DNA of 64,000 nucleotides from positions 1-64,000 of IMG/VR virus record IMGVR_UViG_3300042975_000100; one strand, given 5' to 3'. The first letter of the stretch is position 1; each line of letters begins with the position of its first letter. The notes under the pieces are model-generated. The model was not told the origin of the DNA. It saw only the letters and a list, made by a program, of their open reading frames with translations, and did not search any database. The stretch is from a virus (taxonomy: Duplodnaviria; Caudoviricetes). Made by a program: the position numbers and the translations under genes. This document shows positions 4,722-39,167 of this stretch, in pieces.

Positions 4722-6575
4722 TTACTTGATTCCGATTATTCTTTTAAAAAGATCGATAGTGTAAAGTAACGTACTTCTACGAATCTTTACTCTATCATCG
4801 GAGAATGGACTATCCTGATATTCCTTAAGCATATCAAAGTTTCTATCATATTTCTGTACGATAGCCATATACTTTGTAATATCATTGATAATCTTTGCCC
4901 TAGCTTTATGATAATCCTGTATCTTCTTTTTACTACGTTCCTGATGGATTTTCTCCTCAAGAATCGTATTCAGATACCAAAGTTTGCAAAGGCAATATTT
5001 CATTCCTTCTACGTTCTTTGCTTTCTCATATTGTTTAAGAGCAAGATGTGTTGTAGAATACTCAGCTTCAAAGTCTACATCGAGACCCTTATCTATAAGA
5101 AGGTTTCCATCATCATCAAACTGAATAGGCCATTCTTTTGCTTCCATGATGCATGAGAATGAATCTATCAAAGAATTCTCGGTCTTAGGAGCATTAGACT
5201 TGGAAAGAGAATCGATATAACTCAATACCTTTGCTGCCGAATACTTCTTAGGAGATCCATAGAATACTTTGTAGATGAATGCCTGATACTTCTTTTTCTT
5301 TACAGCTCTATTCAAACTTCCAGGGGATACCATGTTAGAACCGATCTTAGTGATATCCACATCTGCAAGTTTAAGCATGCTATCTACAAACTGAGAGCAT
5401 ACCATCTTTACATTATCAACGTAATTGATATTGAGAGGTATAGTAATCAGATTGATAAGAGAGTAATCGGCATGTGATTCTTTCAGCTTTTCTATTTTCT
5501 GCTTAAGTTTATTGTATCTTTCCTTAGATACAAATACAGCATACACCTGAATAGCTTTATCAGAGGTACGGTCTTTCAATGACTGTGCCTGAAACCCACC
5601 CGGGAAAGAGAAACTGTACAGTGTTTTCATAGATGCATCGAATGACAAAGCTGAATGTGAGTACACTGACTTAGTAGCAATTCTAGTCAATTTATTGAAA
5701 AATGTCTCAGAATTGAAGAAAACTACGTATAGTGGGTACACATCAAGGGAAGTCTCTGTAAACGCGTTTTTCGCATTTTTGACACTCTCAGATACATCCA
5801 AAATGGTGTAATTAGAAACTGATTCTGAGATGATCTTGCTAACTCTTTTGCTGGCAAAGCGTTTAGTAGATTCATTATATTGTATTTCTGGATTCCATCC
5901 TAGATCAAGTATAGATTGCTTAACAGCATCTACATCTTTCTTATCAGAAGTCTTAGAAAGTTTCATATACAGTTTCTTTAAAGTATTATCCCAATCGGTG
6001 TATCTGGACATGGTAGATCCAAATCCATTCAGCCTATTGCAATAATGCTTATACCATTCCGCTGCATCCAAGTCAGTTTTGAATGCCTCTTTAGAGTACA
6101 TAGGATTTTCACTCAAGTATGACACTCCAAGGTGCTCCATTTCGTTAGATGTGAAGTAAGGAGTGCCGAGAAATCTTACAGAATTATCGGCATCGACCCT
6201 ATCAACTATATCTTCTGTAGCACATTCAGAAAGATACTTACTACGAATATCAATAGGTTTCATAAGAGCTGCCGACTCAAGAGCCGGGCTGTATCTCTTA
6301 TCAAACAAACTATCATTGATATCGTTCTTTAAGAATTCATGCGCCATTTTCTCATAGCGAGTTCTGTTATCAAAGTTAAATAACTCTATCGATTTCCAGT
6401 CAGATTCATGCTGAAAATCTATAGGCATTTCTTGATATGAATTGAAGTCCTGCTTAAGCGATTTGAAATCTGGATACTTACTATACAGAAGAATCTTATT
6501 GTTACCAATACGCCATTTCTTAACTTCTCTATCGCCAAGCTCTACATGCTTGATTTCTTCATCAATGTTTAACAT
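4722..6575 (-). CDS. Probable virion protein carrying a permuted papain-like (NlpC/P60, YiiX/YebB-type) domain
   Basis: Likely start is ATG 6575, overlapping the upstream stop. His precedes Cys: KSVYSHSALSFD...ADYS...KMVCSQFVDSML (about 5200-5750). Candidate cleavage motifs ALES, ISES, VSES, FTET, IMEA. Confidence 0.7.
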   Translation of the reverse strand: MLNIDEEIKHVELGDREVKKWRIGNNKILLYSKYPDFKSLKQDFNSYQEMPIDFQHESDWKSIELFNFDNRTRYEKMAHEFLKNDINDSLFDKRYSPALESAALMKPIDIRSKYLSECATEDIVDRVDADNSVRFLGTPYFTSNEMEHLGVSYLSENPMYSKEAFKTDLDAAEWYKHYCNRLNGFGSTMSRYTDWDNTLKKLYMKLSKTSDKKDVDAVKQSILDLGWNPEIQYNESTKRFASKRVSKIISESVSNYTILDVSESVKNAKNAFTETSLDVYPLYVVFFNSETFFNKLTRIATKSVYSHSALSFDASMKTLYSFSFPGGFQAQSLKDRTSDKAIQVYAVFVSKERYNKLKQKIEKLKESHADYSLINLITIPLNINYVDNVKMVCSQFVDSMLKLADVDITKIGSNMVSPGSLNRAVKKKKYQAFIYKVFYGSPKKYSAAKVLSYIDSLSKSNAPKTENSLIDSFSCIMEAKEWPIQFDDDGNLLIDKGLDVDFEAEYSTTHLALKQYEKAKNVEGMKYCLCKLWYLNTILEEKIHQERSKKKIQDYHKARAKIINDITKYMAIVQKYDRNFDMLKEYQDSPFSDDRVKIRRSTLLYTIDLFKRIIGIK

Positions 6576-9500
6576 TTTTCTTAGCCACCACCTTAGCTGG
6601 AATATCTTTGATCCTCTGGTAATATGCTGTACGCATTCCAGTCTTTGCGTTCTTAGCATAGACACCATACTGATTCTCCATCACTACGACATCTTTCAAT
6701 CCTTCAGTGATAGCATCTGCTTCTTTAATCATATGAGGATTAGTAAGAGGGAATTCATGATCTTTCTTACCCTTAATAGACTTAAGCTGCTCAGCTACAG
6801 TCTGTAGATATGAGGTAGCTTCAGATCCAATATCAATTGGAGATACCTCTGTGCATGATTCATCACAAAGAATCTGATCATCTGATAACAGCTTCTTTCC
6901 AGTAAGGGCTTCATATATGAATCCTCTAGGCTGAACTGTTCCTATAGCATTTTCGATAATACGTAATCCTTCTGGATCTGATCTGAATTGGAATACACGA
7001 AGCTTTCTTCCTTTTAAGAACTCCTCTGTATTTTCTTTCTTCACCATACCAGATTTATCTTGCGTAAGAATATTCTTAGTCAGGATATCATTGGAGACAG
7101 CATAGCCCTCTACATTCATATCCATGATACCAGTTCCAGTATCACGATGAACAGGACCATATTGGGTTACATATGATAAGTCTGGTGCAGGTGTCATCCC
7201 ACCAGGGCCTGCAAACTCATTCAAGTCCATATCTACTCCTTCCCGAATAGCATCCCGATGATTGAAGTAGAAGTCAATTGCTTCTTCATGTTCCGCTCTC
7301 CAATCAATGGTATCCACTCCAACATATTTTGCCTTCTGATAGAAGTCATCTTTATCAACGTCTTCAATATGACCAGTAAACTTCTTATCATATTCTGCTA
7401 CGAATATGAATGTAAGACTGCCTTCGTATTTCAATCCCAGTGGCCAAAGTTTCTTCTTTTGCCATTCAGGATATTTTCCTTCATAATTCTGGAAGTAAGT
7501 CATTCCAGTATATGATCTATTCTTAGTTACGACTAAGGCCTCTTCATTGCATTCAGCCTCAGCTTGCTCATCTAATGCTCTGCCTTTATCTAATCCACCA
7601 CCAGGAAGTTTATAGTTGGTTCCATACTTGTTAAGATTCTTAGGATCTTGCATTTCTACAAGTACATCCCCATGCTTATCGAATATAAGAGTTTCTACTC
7701 TTACACGATACTGCTTGTTGTCATACATGATATAAGGATTATCTATACCTTCAGCAGACTTAATATATTTGATATCTTTCGGCTTAGGAATAGGAACTAA
7801 ATTTGCTTCCATTGCGATAGAATCTCTGTAGGTATTCATAGGTGGAACAGGCATAGGAATAAGTTCCATCCACTCTGTATCCATATTATATGCAACTAAG
7901 AATATCTTCTCTATCTCATCCTCACCAAAGAGAATCAGATAAGATAACCAAAGATCTTTAGCCATCTTGATATGCATAATACCAGAGTAGGTAAAGAGTT
8001 TATCTCTCATAGTATCTACTAACCCATTACCGGTAGCCATAGATTGAATATAGTTACAAAGCTGATTAGCATTGTATCTCTTATCTGCATCAGTATCTTT
8101 AGGATTGAAGATGATAAGGAACTCATATTCCTTTCCAGCTTTTTCATAGAAAGAAGCCGTAGCCTTACCGATGATACTAAAGAATTTCTCGCTAGGATCG
8201 AACCATTCTTTGAATCTATCCTTTCCAGCACATGCCAGATTAGCAAGAAGAATCTCAGCCCCTTCAGACTTTGGAGAGATAAAGTAGTTTATACGTTCTT
8301 TATGTTCTACTCCTACAGATTCTATCAATGATTCATAGTTAGGATCTGTGCTATGATATTCTCCTTCATAAGTAGATACTGATTCCTGCATACCAACGTT
8401 ATCTATAACGATGGTTCCAGTGTCATATATGTGATTCATGTATTTAACGGTCGTAAGGCCAAATTTTCTAGATGGTTTATACTTCATAAGAAGATTTGGC
8501 ATCTTTTCTTCATTAAGTTTACTTACGTATACAGCTATCATATCTTGCTCATTGTCAAAACAATGAACTCCTTTAAAGCTATACCATGAAGATTCTACCA
8601 CGTAAACTTTATTACCTTTCATACATGCTACCCATGTATGTGTAGGATTAACTCCATCATCACTATTGAATTGATGATAGTATAATGAATATTTACCATT
8701 GCTTAAATCTGCAGTGGTATTTTTATATCCCATTTTCTCTAGATACTTAGCTTCATAGTCTGCATAATCCCAGCATATACCATATCCAAGCTTTTCAAAT
8801 TCAGCCGGAGACTTAGTTTTATAATCTTTAAAGTAGTCATCCCTCTCTTCATAAGAGAAGTTTGCCTCTAAGTTATTATATAACCTTACCAATTCCTTAG
8901 GGCCTTTGACAGGTTTTGCATTTTCTAATACCATATTATTATCACCTCTATAATTATAATATATAGGTGAAAGGTTAGTTGACTCTCCTTCATAAGTAGA
9001 TACCGAGTCATCGAGTTCTCCAGATTCCATCATAGAATCATTCGTCCTATTAAACCAATCTGATGCAGCATATATCAACTTAGCTTTTATAGACTTTGGA
9101 AGGTGCGTTAGCTTTTCCTTCAAGTTGTCGTACATATCGTTATGCATCTCAGGATTTGGAGAATCGTATTTGCAAATAAGAGATGGCATATACTTAGATT
9201 TGAACATCATATCATCTCTAAATATCTTTTTATCTCCATAGAATTTATCATAGATTGGATACTCCTTGGTATCCTGGATAGCTGCAAAATATTTAATATC
9301 ACATAAATCATTGTCGCTAGCTTTTCCTATGATATTCTTTACACTCATAACATGCTTCTTCATCATCTTAAGTTGTTCATTTCTTACATCTTCAGGCTTA
9401 GAGTATGGGCCCTTCATTCCATAAGAACGTTTCCCTTGATAATTAAAAACATAGTACAATCCATCTTTTTCTTTATAGATGCACATAAAGTGCTGGAACA

Positions 9501-11388
9501 TATGATACTCTTTATCTCCATACTTGCGGAAGTATTTGGAAGTTCTAAGGATATAGTTTTCGATATGCTTACGTTCGCAGAAGAAATGCATGAGTAAAGT
9601 AAAGTCAATGCACGTTCCAAGCTTCGTTCTCAATATATCATCAGGCCAATAGAAATGTATTCCTTTGCTACGGTCTTTAGCATTAAACTCTTTAGGCCAA
9701 TCACACTGATTTACCTTAACCCAATTAAGAACGTCGGTTGGAGATTGCATGTCCTTACAGAAGGCATCGAAGCTAGTATACTTCTTTTTGTATCTATCAA
9801 TACCAGATTCATTGATGGTAGACTCTCCAAATATTCCTTTTATAGATTTGAGTATGCTGCTCAACTTGATTTTATCTAGTTTAGAAAGAACCTCATCGAG
9901 CCACGTAATCTTATCAGTATGGCATTCTTTATTCACCTTAGCAAGCATATCCCAAATTTCAGGTATACGTTTAACTATCTCTGCTTGGGTGGCATACCTA
10001 TCATTATAATAATCATCATATACATTCAGATTTTCTTTTTGTATACGAGAAAACACCTTTTTAGCATGATACTTTCCAGGCATCAGTTTTAAGAAAAGAG
10101 AAGTGATGTAGAAATAATACTTTTTATATGCCGCTTCTGCTTCTTCGTATGAGCCAAATGGTCCCTGGAGTGAACCTTCATTGTTAGCACGATAATTAAA
10201 GATATAGACTCCAGAATCTTTTATTTTGTATAGGCATACTATATGACCTAAATACTTAGTATCTTTATCATTAGTCGCTATAGTTCCTATATACAGCATT
10301 CTATTTTCTATGCTATTACGATTACAAAGCAGACGCATAAAGATGGCATGATCGAAGCAAATTCCAGCATGATTTTTGATTATTTCATCAGGCCAAGCTA
10401 CGATAACATCATCTTCATTCGTACTATGAATGGCTAATCTTCTTTTTACCCTCTCATCTTGCGTAAACCATCTGATATTATTTACGTTATACCAGTCATT
10501 CAATTCACTAGGAGTTTTGATAGATTTACATAAATCATTAAACCCAGAATACCTTTTGGTAAACTTACTACCTACAGTTTCATCAATACAAGTCTCTTGC
10601 AGCATATCTACTTCTTCATTGACATTGATGATGACCTTCTTATTCTCTTCGCTATCATCAATCATCTGAGCTTTCAATTCTGCTACGATACCAAGCAGCT
10701 GGCTGAAATCGTTATCAGTCAATCTAAGGTAGTTGAATTTACCCATATTGGTAATCATCTGCTCTTTGGCTAACTGCTTCTCTCTATAAGAAATCATCTC
10801 ACGATTGTTAGGATTACTTCCTCCATCCTTAACTTCAATAACAAGATTGAATGGGATAAGAAGGATATCGGTAATCCACTTCAGTTTCTTCCCTTTGTAG
10901 ATATATTCTATCGTAGGCCCAGGAGAGAGAATATCAGTGCTTTTGAATCCCATCACTTTATCCATGAATTCAAGAGCCTTCTCTTCGTATTTACCAGTAA
11001 ATACATGATATCCACCATCAGTGAATTTATACTTACCAGATATACGTCTGTTAGCCAGCATCTTTTCTTGCTGCTCTGGGTCATCAAGAAGAGTAGTCTT
11101 GCCATGTACTCTAAGCATATTCTTCTTATAAGCATCTCGCAAAGCTTTCTGGCACTGTGGTCTACCACAGAGCCGATCATATTTGCAAGCGGTTTCGTTC
11201 CATTTCGTTGGTCTCTTGCATACGACGCAAGTACCATGATCTTTATGATTGATAGTGTTGAATACTATCTGATTTGCCGTCATACCTTTTGGAATGCATT
11301 CCTCATGCTCTTCCTCAATATGAGATCCTAAGTTTTCTCTAGTAGCTCTATAGCTGCAAAAGGGACACTTATACGTTTTCGTACTCAT
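6562..11388 (-). CDS. 1608-aa polyprotein: C2H2 finger + PD-(D/E)xK nuclease, three transglutaminase-like domains, unknown domain, Nudix hydrolase, C-terminal domain
   Basis: CPFC...HIEEEH; TDILLIPFNLVIEVKDG; GICFDH...GHIVC...YIFNY; GTCIDF...QHFMC...YVFNY; GICWDY...THTWV...VVESSW; Nudix-box-like KLPGGGLDKGRALDEQAEAECNEEALV. Confidence 0.8.
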   Translation of the reverse strand: MSTKTYKCPFCSYRATRENLGSHIEEEHEECIPKGMTANQIVFNTINHKDHGTCVVCKRPTKWNETACKYDRLCGRPQCQKALRDAYKKNMLRVHGKTTLLDDPEQQEKMLANRRISGKYKFTDGGYHVFTGKYEEKALEFMDKVMGFKSTDILSPGPTIEYIYKGKKLKWITDILLIPFNLVIEVKDGGSNPNNREMISYREKQLAKEQMITNMGKFNYLRLTDNDFSQLLGIVAELKAQMIDDSEENKKVIINVNEEVDMLQETCIDETVGSKFTKRYSGFNDLCKSIKTPSELNDWYNVNNIRWFTQDERVKRRLAIHSTNEDDVIVAWPDEIIKNHAGICFDHAIFMRLLCNRNSIENRMLYIGTIATNDKDTKYLGHIVCLYKIKDSGVYIFNYRANNEGSLQGPFGSYEEAEAAYKKYYFYITSLFLKLMPGKYHAKKVFSRIQKENLNVYDDYYNDRYATQAEIVKRIPEIWDMLAKVNKECHTDKITWLDEVLSKLDKIKLSSILKSIKGIFGESTINESGIDRYKKKYTSFDAFCKDMQSPTDVLNWVKVNQCDWPKEFNAKDRSKGIHFYWPDDILRTKLGTCIDFTLLMHFFCERKHIENYILRTSKYFRKYGDKEYHMFQHFMCIYKEKDGLYYVFNYQGKRSYGMKGPYSKPEDVRNEQLKMMKKHVMSVKNIIGKASDNDLCDIKYFAAIQDTKEYPIYDKFYGDKKIFRDDMMFKSKYMPSLICKYDSPNPEMHNDMYDNLKEKLTHLPKSIKAKLIYAASDWFNRTNDSMMESGELDDSVSTYEGESTNLSPIYYNYRGDNNMVLENAKPVKGPKELVRLYNNLEANFSYEERDDYFKDYKTKSPAEFEKLGYGICWDYADYEAKYLEKMGYKNTTADLSNGKYSLYYHQFNSDDGVNPTHTWVACMKGNKVYVVESSWYSFKGVHCFDNEQDMIAVYVSKLNEEKMPNLLMKYKPSRKFGLTTVKYMNHIYDTGTIVIDNVGMQESVSTYEGEYHSTDPNYESLIESVGVEHKERINYFISPKSEGAEILLANLACAGKDRFKEWFDPSEKFFSIIGKATASFYEKAGKEYEFLIIFNPKDTDADKRYNANQLCNYIQSMATGNGLVDTMRDKLFTYSGIMHIKMAKDLWLSYLILFGEDEIEKIFLVAYNMDTEWMELIPMPVPPMNTYRDSIAMEANLVPIPKPKDIKYIKSAEGIDNPYIMYDNKQYRVRVETLIFDKHGDVLVEMQDPKNLNKYGTNYKLPGGGLDKGRALDEQAEAECNEEALVVTKNRSYTGMTYFQNYEGKYPEWQKKKLWPLGLKYEGSLTFIFVAEYDKKFTGHIEDVDKDDFYQKAKYVGVDTIDWRAEHEEAIDFYFNHRDAIREGVDMDLNEFAGPGGMTPAPDLSYVTQYGPVHRDTGTGIMDMNVEGYAVSNDILTKNILTQDKSGMVKKENTEEFLKGRKLRVFQFRSDPEGLRIIENAIGTVQPRGFIYEALTGKKLLSDDQILCDESCTEVSPIDIGSEATSYLQTVAEQLKSIKGKKDHEFPLTNPHMIKEADAITEGLKDVVVMENQYGVYAKNAKTGMRTAYYQRIKDIPAKVVAKKNVKH
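8360..9003. repeat. 20-bp exact direct repeat (TCTCCTTCATAAGTAGATAC at 8360-8379 and 8984-9003) flanking the third transglutaminase module
   Basis: Read directly from the sequence; both copies lie in SVSTYEGE on the minus strand. Confidence 0.9.
8932..8970 (-). promoter_or_regulatory. Intragenic early promoter, hairpin-occluded RBS and in-frame ATG
   Basis: Minus strand reads TCACC-TATATATTAT-AATTATA-GAGGTGA-TAATAAT-ATG (ATG at 8934, in frame with the polyprotein). TCACCT pairs with AGGTGA. Confidence 0.7.
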
Positions 11389-11465
11389 TGTTGGAATCCT
11401 CCCTTGTAAGTTTACTAGTATGTCAGATAGGCCTAATTTGACATATCCAGTAAGGAGATGATATC

Positions 11466-37396: not shown

Positions 37397-38245
37397 GTGA
37401 ATCCGTTAGCTTATATAATTTGTGAATCTACAGCTCAGGATGTAGAATTCAATATTGTAAATCAAAATAGAAACTTTGTAATTGCTGAGGGTATTCTCCA
37501 GGAAGCCGAAGGCGAAAATCGTAATCATCGCTGCTATGCTAGGGAAGATCTCTTTAAAGAGATTACCTCTCCGAGACAGCAGGAATTGGTTCAGAGCGGA
37601 AACTTCAAAGGAGAAGCAGGCCATCCAATGGATGTGAATCTTGCTCGTCAGCAGACTATTGATCCTACCCTTGTTCAGGTTTGGTATACTAAACTTTGGA
37701 TGGACGGAAACTTGGTTAAAGCCCATTTCAGAGGTACAAACAATGAACTTGGTCGTGGATTCAATGCAGACCTTCTGGATGGTCAGAAACCATCATTCTC
37801 TCTTCGCGCTCTTGGCAGAATTGAGAATCAGAAAGGTAAAGCGTATGTAAAAGGGCTTAAGATCGTTACATATGATCGTGTATACTATCCGTCTCATTCA
37901 AAAGCCTACACTAGTAAGATCATCAGTGATGATGCTGAAAAGGTAATGGCGAATAGTGCTAAGTTTAGCACTCCTATTAGTGTCAAAGAAGCCGGCAATA
38001 ATATGGTGATGACAGAGAGTGGTATTCTTTCGCCAATTTGCTCTGAATCTGTTCGTAACTATCTTATCTCTGAATCTGCAAACATCGATTTCATTCGTAA
38101 GAATTTTGATACTTTCTATGAGAGCATCAAACTTACGGAAGATGGAAACAGTGTTGCTTTGACGACTAAAGACTATGATACGATTCTTGTTCCGGTAGAG
38201 CGTCATATCTCTAACGAAATTATGGAATTTTGCTCGAAATTATAA
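37397..38245 (+). CDS. Prohead core protein protease (T4 gp21-like)
   Basis: NRNHRCY, GEAGHP, SFSLRALG, VTYDRVYYPSH; late motif at 37363. Confidence 0.9.
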   Translation: MNPLAYIICESTAQDVEFNIVNQNRNFVIAEGILQEAEGENRNHRCYAREDLFKEITSPRQQELVQSGNFKGEAGHPMDVNLARQQTIDPTLVQVWYTKLWMDGNLVKAHFRGTNNELGRGFNADLLDGQKPSFSLRALGRIENQKGKAYVKGLKIVTYDRVYYPSHSKAYTSKIISDDAEKVMANSAKFSTPISVKEAGNNMVMTESGILSPICSESVRNYLISESANIDFIRKNFDTFYESIKLTEDGNSVALTTKDYDTILVPVERHISNEIMEFCSKL

Positions 38246-39088: not shown

Positions 39089-39167
39089 ATTATTGATTCC
39101 TCCTTCATCTATATAATATATGGCCAGACTGATTTTTACATTTAGGTAATAAAGGAGTTGATTAGAA

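Follow-up and report, generated by a model that had tools for sequence, protein, structure and literature searches.

The window analysed here, the first 64 kb of the 144.8-kb IMG/VR record IMGVR_UViG_3300042975_000100 (Caudoviricetes; GC 38.7%), carries on its minus strand an open reading frame (ORF) of 1608 codons (6562-11388), which, from the ORF and its translation, is the gene of a multi-enzyme, or 'polyvalent', protein. Counts given below for the record cover all 144.8 kb. Our analysis concerns a 624-bp block in the middle of this gene, which encodes a cysteine peptidase-like domain, is bounded by a 20-nt direct repeat and contains what look like the promoter, the Shine-Dalgarno (SD) sequence and the start codon of an early gene.

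The borders of the modules were set by alignment with four related proteins (P0002, P0003, P0156 and P0007). A Zn-finger endonuclease (residues 1-262; Pfam DUF553; PHROG phrog_15137, E 2.6e-43) is followed by two transglutaminase (TGase)-like domains, d1 (residues 263-522) and d2 (residues 523-788), which are paralogous, being 27% identical. A spacer separates d2 from the d3 block (residues 803-1010), after which come module X (residues 1011-1192), to which no function is assigned, a NUDIX domain (residues ~1217-1378; Pfam NUDIX) and a conserved C-terminal domain (residues ~1386-1608). The endonuclease is 31-39% identical to stand-alone proteins of AR9, PBS1, Staphylococcus jumbo phages and phiR1-37, and the phiR1-37 homologue, g237, carries a structural-protein annotation. 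PDB sequence searches with module X and the C-terminal domain gave nothing, and the C-terminal domain had no database match, tblastn included. As the same window encodes a multisubunit RNA polymerase (RNAP) beta subunit and an S77 prohead protease, the phage is an AR9-like jumbo phage with its own RNA polymerases.

The direct repeat and the domain it encloses

The upstream copy of the repeat (8984-9003, minus strand) encodes residues 796-802 and ends the acidic leader of module X (...LDDSVSTYEGE), and the downstream copy (8360-8379, minus strand) encodes residues 1004-1010 and is followed by the rest of that leader (YHSTDP...). Both copies are exact and bracket the third TGase-like domain, d3, as a preliminary description of this DNA had reported with the right coordinates. 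If 2 mismatches are allowed, the repeat is 26 nt long (to 9009 and to 8385), and each copy is translated, in the frame of the 1608-aa ORF, as [D/E]SVSTYEGE. There are exactly two copies of the 20-mer in the window, a situation reproduced in 0/100 dinucleotide shuffles, and a blastn-short search of the record found no third full copy; a partial resemblance at 7470-7486 was discarded as a chance one inside the conserved NUDIX core. The spacing of 624 nt (208 codons) keeps the frame, and its being a multiple of three, to which attention had already been drawn, follows automatically from the two copies coding for the same peptide in the same frame. More telling is the choice of codons, since the same codons for the same peptide are expected with P ~0.002-0.008 under the codon usage of this genome; the identity of the repeat therefore lies at the DNA level, beyond the peptide level.

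That the duplication was created by the assembly is improbable in the extreme. A JGI contig of 258,667 bp and the Logan assembly of run SRR35181508, which may share its sample, agree completely in the sequence of the gene, and an allele of 1802 aa from a third contig, 99% identical, also has both copies of the repeated peptide. A 20-nt repeat is, moreover, shorter than sequencing reads and assembler k-mers.

The enclosed domain d3 (8383-8934, minus strand; Met819-Glu1002) is predicted to adopt a transglutaminase-like or papain-like cysteine peptidase fold, and has no significant sequence similarity to d1 or d2. Pfam PF01841 (Transglut_core) matches its residues 831-887 with 28.6 bits against a cut-off of 23. 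Cys872, His917 and Glu932 are invariant among 26 homologues (alignment A1) and, from their position, would be the catalytic residues. The AlphaFold model of d3 (pLDDT 84.9) is confident from residue 831 onward, and its Foldseek neighbours, LapG, PeiW/PeiP, CPR-C4, SseI and vasohibin, are all of the transglutaminase-like cysteine peptidase or deamidase type, with probabilities of up to 0.99, TM-scores of 0.3-0.5 and a best E of 2.8e-3. The bacterial transglutaminase-like cysteine protease LapG, the pseudomurein endoisopeptidases PeiW/PeiP and the CPR-C4 protease are the nearest neighbours of the d3 model (probability 0.96-0.99), and d3 has a conserved Cys-His-acid triad, but its sequence is 12-20% identical to theirs and all Foldseek E values are above 0.001. 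An exhaustive HMMER search was needed to collect its homologues, 340 at E<=1e-3; a word-index search with the d3 module at similar length returned nothing.

Putative expression signals inside the block

Between the upstream repeat copy and d3 lies an intergenic-like stretch of 48 nt (8935-8982, minus strand; residues 803-818), with a GC content of 0.23 and a GC3 of 0.06, the lowest in the gene, and without counterpart in the closest homologue, P0005. The segment ahead of the d3 fold is modelled as disordered, since residues 803-808 and 815-828 have a pLDDT <50. The preliminary description had placed an early promoter motif, a ribosome-binding site and an in-frame ATG just inside the upstream copy, and all three are found there on the minus strand. 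The motif TATATTAT (8963-8956) is the core of an early (virion-RNAP type) promoter-like element (8949-8964) that reads A-TATATTAT-A-N4-T, then A where the consensus has G (+1). It is followed by the SD-like GAGGTGAT (8941-8948), an 8-nt match to the anti-SD complement located 6 nt before the ATG of Met819 (8932-8934). Stand-alone homologues, once aligned, begin no more than a few residues away from this Met.

The 8-mer TATATTAT is by itself weak evidence, with 17 copies in the window vs 9 expected. Of its 39 copies in the record, however, 24 share A-TATATTAT-A-N4-T-G, usually with T-T before and a purine after. The resulting extended consensus ATATATTATA-N4-TG (T-T-A-TATATTAT-A-N4-T-G-R) has 24 sites in the record besides the internal one, and all 24 are intergenic, in short open spans at the heads of ORFs; those of the window include 3617-, 4613-, 15477+, 18781+, 27429+, 31830+, 37326-, 39120-, 42718-, 46073- and 47183+ (position and strand). 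Two further sites with one core mismatch, 123535- and 68336-, match the true sites in score. The internal site (8964-8949) fits all invariant positions except +1 and lies 835 codons into a long ORF, a depth that no other copy of the pattern reaches. With a weight matrix trained on the 24 consensus sites, it scores 18.3 bits, which ranks it 28th among ~290,000 positions and within the leave-one-out range of these sites (16.9-29.2). Its compact layout, in which the SD begins right at +1, is also that of the intergenic promoters at 39120(-) and 94792(-). The TATATTAT strings within the genes of two relatives (L003 and L123) do not fit the extended consensus.

The promoters of AR9 have been mapped experimentally, and its virion-RNAP early consensus was defined as AAATATATATTAT-N6-G(+1) (Lavysh et al., 2017; PMC5312081). 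The present phage shares with AR9 the core TATATTAT and the 6-nt spacing to +1, and differs from it in the upstream consensus (T-T-A vs A-A-A-T-A). AR9 also has promoters within ORFs, but its 13 internal promoters are late-type and its one non-intergenic early promoter lies in an intron (PMC5312081).

Two positions of the internal element count against its being an active promoter: +1 is A (8949) where 24/24 consensus sites have G, which comes one nt later here, and position -4 is a rare C. The element may thus be a decaying fossil. In AR9, early promoter P044 is active with A at +1, at modest read counts (PMC5312081, Table S2), so that A at +1 remains compatible with function, and another AR9 site is silenced by a single upstream mismatch (PMC5312081). 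Given these AR9 cases, the consensus and the matrix score, the internal element looks like a true promoter of this phage, among the weaker ones, and the early-promoter identity proposed for the motif is thus supported. That it still fires is conceivable, if not quite probable.

The region could also form an RNA hairpin, UCACCU/AGGUGA (8942-8970, minus strand), whose 6-bp stem would pair the SD with the sequence just 5' of the promoter core. Evidence for it is weak (minimum free energy z = -1.87; 6/200 shuffles fold equally well); the hairpin has no U-run, and the cassette no terminator. A transcript from the internal promoter would be without the 5' arm of the hairpin.

Relatives with and without the block

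Three informative relatives (L002, P0156 and P0003) came from a large protein collection. The allele L002 (1276 aa) is the empty counterpart that the preliminary description had proposed to look for. It is 96.4% identical in nucleotides to the window over the endonuclease, 86.2% over d1 and 98.5% from module X to the C-terminus (1824 nt), and it has a single copy of the 20-mer, 19/20 identical, at the position of d3. Its left flank is that of the upstream copy of the window (LDDS codons) and its right flank that of the downstream copy (YHSTDP...). The L002 junction is, from its sequence, the exact product that would be expected from recombination between the two 20-mers. As d1 is 86% identical in DNA (gene nt 808-1568 in the window vs 1234-1994 in L002) between flanks that are 96-98.5% identical, the modules appear to have had separate recombination histories.

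The other relatives differ from the window in the same part of the gene. P0156 (1802 aa), 99% identical to the window protein, keeps d3 and both copies of the peptide, and has an extra P-loop NTPase/kinase-like module of ~190 aa directly after the ...MLQE junction at the end of the endonuclease (~10594). In P0003 (78% identical), d2 stands alone between the endonuclease and NUDIX, and in P0002 the GNAT module is present and d2 and d3 are absent. Since the alleles differ between a constant head and a constant tail, the middle of the gene is an interchangeable set of modules. The ...MLQE junction is also found in the fragment P0157 and precedes four different modules across the alleles.

The d3 module is also found as a stand-alone gene, as had been anticipated. 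Stand-alone homologues are ~170-230 aa long and, in alignment A1, their N-termini fall within a few residues of Met819 (within ~3 residues for P0006, P0011, P0015, P0046 and others). One of them, P0006 (47% identity), is encoded 10 nt downstream of a 751-aa NUDIX+GNAT gene. Other homologues are domains of large proteins, such as P0029, where d3 is combined with NUDIX, P-loop kinases, an S51 peptidase and GNAT.

A more distant syntenic relative, L127, has a split locus (L127:503-4293). There, a gene of 692 aa encoding the endonuclease (62%) and NUDIX (47%) ends at a stop codon and is followed by a perfect ATATATTATA-N4-TG promoter with an SD, then by a 120-aa gene and by a 430-aa gene whose product has a d3 homologue (42%) at its head and the conserved C-terminal domain (43%) at its tail. 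The order of modules is unlike that of the window, as d3 comes after NUDIX. An early-promoter-led unit reading toward a d3-headed protein is thus a real state of the locus in a relative. In AR9 (L126, 200867-206003), the endonuclease g233 is a stand-alone protein, directly followed by an annotated early promoter and the early genes g234-g236; AR9 was rejected as an 'unfused' version of the present gene, because g234-g239 are not homologous to any of its modules.

The empty allele and the split locus bear on the direction of the event. The two-repeat state could be the older one, derived from adjacent genes fused by loss of a stop codon or from an already fused polyprotein, and the L002 type could have arisen from it by deletion between the 20-mers. 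Split loci with an early promoter ahead of a d3-bearing gene do exist, as in L127, deletion between the repeats would give the L002 junction exactly, and short direct repeats are classic substrates of deletion. Such a history still requires an earlier event that duplicated the 20-mer, and past the 20 nt the copies abruptly cease to be identical, with 2 mismatches among the 6 nt that follow, which is what a recent junction would look like. The contiguous leader of L002, homologous to the interrupted leader of the window on both sides, fits gain and loss equally. We regard this older two-repeat state as possible but rather unlikely.

The direct repeats around the block and the existence of an empty site could also point to a mobile element, a transposon or a homing cassette, that would have inserted with a 20-nt target-site duplication, as the preliminary description had suggested among its options. 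The ends of the block have no terminal inverted repeats, the block has no second copy in the record, and it encodes the peptidase-like domain only, with no transposase or homing endonuclease; 20-26 nt is, besides, atypical for known target duplications. The transposon was rejected on its missing inverted termini and the single copy of the block, and insertion of any such element is very improbable.

The searches for further relatives were otherwise negative. A megablast search of GenBank phages with the gene gave no match, and tblastn matched only the N-terminal endonuclease with the whole protein and nothing with d3. Scans of IMG/VR with the module, a degenerate form of the repeat, module X, the C-terminal domain and an alignment of the latter returned nothing related, and shorter fragments spanning the junction yielded no further close alleles. 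A scan of metagenomes with the degenerate 20-mer, a pattern that proved too degenerate, gave at least 117 matches, all by chance and none encoding a relative.

Probable late expression, proposed capture of the block and its meaning

The whole gene is preceded by a late-type promoter-like motif, GACA-N6-TA (11409-11420, minus strand), and by no early-type element. In the record, [AG]ACA-N6-TA is found upstream of 24/127 gene starts, among them those of the polyprotein and of the prohead protease, vs 1/127 control windows within ORFs; the late consensus of AR9 is AACA-N6-TA/G (PMC5312081). The protease (37397-38245, plus strand) is of the T4 gp21 type (Peptidase_S77; Pfam PF03420, 36.4 bits vs a cut-off of 27; PHROG head maturation protease, E 2.5e-25). 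In T4 (gp21) and phiKZ (gp175), head and internal proteins are processed by the prohead protease, and proteases of the T4 gp21 family cut at sites of the hydrophobic-x-Glu type. By analogy, the S77 protease is a candidate for cutting the polyprotein at such sites, which end <=3 residues from 5/7 of the module breakpoints (P = 0.0017). The S77 gene and this enrichment, both known here from sequence, are features in common with T4/phiKZ head processing, and the repeated YEGE junctions are a misfit. On the polyvalent-protein model (PMC5512222), the polyprotein is probably made late, packaged and cut into units. Taken together, the ORF is likely to be the late-promoter-driven polyvalent protein gene of an AR9/PBS1-like jumbo phage, with conserved ends and middle modules that vary by allele. 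In all alleles, its end is overlapped by ~14 nt by a conserved gene of ~617 aa (window 4722-6668, minus strand; L002:6398-7543; L003:6801-8651), for which PHROG offers a weak match, to an enoyl-CoA hydratase/crotonase-like family (E 8.5e-13), and Pfam none.

The enrichment of cleavage-type sites at breakpoints lends itself to another explanation of the repeat, according to which SVSTYEGE would be a processing or spacer motif that each module needs, its DNA identity being due to gene conversion and the promoter, SD and ATG to coincidence in AT-rich DNA. Other junctions do have related peptides (ETYIAE/STN and SVSITE flanking the GNAT module in L002, ETCIDE in the window), P0029 has ...SESVST after its d3-like domain, and a simple base-composition model (38.7% GC) predicts that each genome would match the 11 fixed promoter positions ~0.6 times by chance. 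But the promoter core, the 8-nt SD, the spaced in-frame ATG, its match to the N-termini of homologues and the indel breakpoint all fall within 70 nt, a conjunction whose probability by chance is very small, that of the promoter core by itself being ~1e-4 in a target of 60 nt. The identity of codons reported above, the absence of any further 20-mer copy in the record and the YEGE junctions, which are not canonical hydrophobic-x-Glu sites, also speak against a functional linker, which we hold to be improbable. Because of this non-canonical character, the 20-mer is treated here as the footprint of a joining event and as a substrate for deletion, not as a cleavage site.

The expression signals, the empty site, the stand-alone homologues and the split locus of L127 largely support the idea, already put forward in the preliminary description, that the d3 block was captured, and it is likely that it represents a formerly independent early gene. 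The block (624 bp, residues 803-1010) interrupts the acidic leader of module X right after ...YEGE, and at its end the 20 nt that precede the interruption are found a second time. It would correspond to a whole former early gene, with its early-promoter core, SD and ATG now read through as a disordered linker of 16 residues and its coding part continuing into the host ORF with no stop codon. If the 20-mers recombined, it would be excised in frame, leaving the junction of the sister allele, and the 20-mer itself would be the footprint of the joining or duplication event. The insertion would have been tolerated because d3 sits in an acidic spacer, between sites after Glu788 and Glu1023, which would be disposable in a polyprotein that is packaged and cut by the S77 protease, and where an insertion would do least harm.

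Several observations weigh against this capture. Only one close empty allele, L002, was found, and the comparison with it is not that of a clean single indel, since L002 also lacks d2 and carries a GNAT module after the endonuclease, so that the event is seen on a background that differs elsewhere too. No donor emerged, the nearest homologue of the module, P0005, being 60% identical. At 20-26 nt, the duplication exceeds those that transposons typically make at their targets, and it comes with neither inverted termini nor a transposase. Both YEGE junctions fail the hydrophobic-x-Glu motif, and packaging and proteolysis are argued by analogy; the one direct hint is the structural-protein annotation of phiR1-37 g237, the homologue of the endonuclease, and the late-type promoter motif points indirectly to packaging. 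Finally, no comparable DNA repeat was found at the other module junctions of this gene and of its relatives (L002, L003 and L123 were checked). The proposal that every module is bounded by DNA repeats was rejected on this ground, and the plug-in mechanism suggested in the preliminary description, which holds for this one junction, is not established as a general, repeat-driven rule.

The diverged linker peptides that flank the GNAT module of L002 suggest, at the peptide level, that modules may generally arrive with a copy of the preceding linker. As no other junction keeps a DNA-level repeat, d3 would then be the most recent event or a special case. At the borders of d2 (~9023-9034 and ~9804-9815), there is a short GAATCTGG microhomology, encoding E-S-G at both ends, which may be a far shorter analogue of the d3 repeat.

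A further, tentative possibility, which we consider doubtful at present, is that the gene is expressed at two times. Its late promoter would give the full, packaged polyprotein, and the internal virion-RNAP promoter would give, from a transcript starting at ~8949 with its SD freed, an early product of 790 aa made of the peptidase-like domain, module X, NUDIX and the C-terminal domain. The SD would be masked by the hairpin in the late mRNA, and the 20-nt repeats would let the module leave and re-enter in frame in populations of the phage.

The finding combines themes that are already known (polyvalent proteins, gene fusion and the cassettes with promoters that take part in the shuffling of phage genomes) and is no new kind of system. 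Polyvalent proteins of phages and conjugative elements (Iyer et al., 2017; PMC5512222; for jumbo phages, see PMC7824862) are, like the present one, large polypeptides with unrelated enzyme domains (here a nuclease, peptidase-like domains and NUDIX, with GNAT and a P-loop kinase in sister alleles) whose content differs among relatives. According to one proposal, injection delivers them together with the DNA and they are cleaved into units, mainly by a zincin-like MPTase (PMC5512222). In contrast, the present protein has TGase-like Cys domains and a separate S77 prohead protease, and its delivery with the DNA is putative. The work on polyvalent proteins (PMC5512222) describes neither a module that keeps a promoter, an SD and an ATG nor a DNA repeat with an empty allele.

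The promoter-early stem-loop (PeSL) cassettes of T4-type phages (Arbiol et al., 2010, PMC2839356; Comeau et al., 2014, PMC4122927) are likewise early-promoter-bearing units that bring about the gain, loss and swapping of genes between close phages via short repeats, with excision predicted between the repeats. PeSLs are, however, intergenic units of promoter and terminator, repeated across hyperplastic regions, in which the repeat is the regulatory cassette itself, whereas the repeat found here is a coding linker and the cassette lies in frame in an ORF; nor does the d3 cassette pair its promoter with a terminator stem-loop.

In ordinary gene fusion, as known from bacteria and phages in general, adjacent or inserted genes become one ORF and the old spacer turns into a linker. 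The coexistence of split and fused forms among relatives (L127 vs the window) is in line with this, but the promoter and SD are still recognisable in the linker, an exact repeat bounds the block and there is a matching empty allele.

Polyvalent proteins are thought to be the first strike of the phage on host defences, and their domain content is very variable. The way in which domains enter and leave them without loss of frame has so far been deduced mostly from the architecture of their domains. In the present gene, a single defined junction distinguishes two states, and the regulatory signals of a free-standing early gene can still be read in the inserted block. This offers a concrete route, by which a whole early gene would enter a disposable spacer and be read through, bounded by a duplicated linker. 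The repeat provides a testable substrate for deletion and the late gene a candidate internal early promoter, and the early consensus ATATATTATA-N4-TG and the late motif are both usable for an uncultured AR9-like jumbo phage. If the gene were indeed expressed at two times, both the content and the timing of its effectors would be switchable at a single site.

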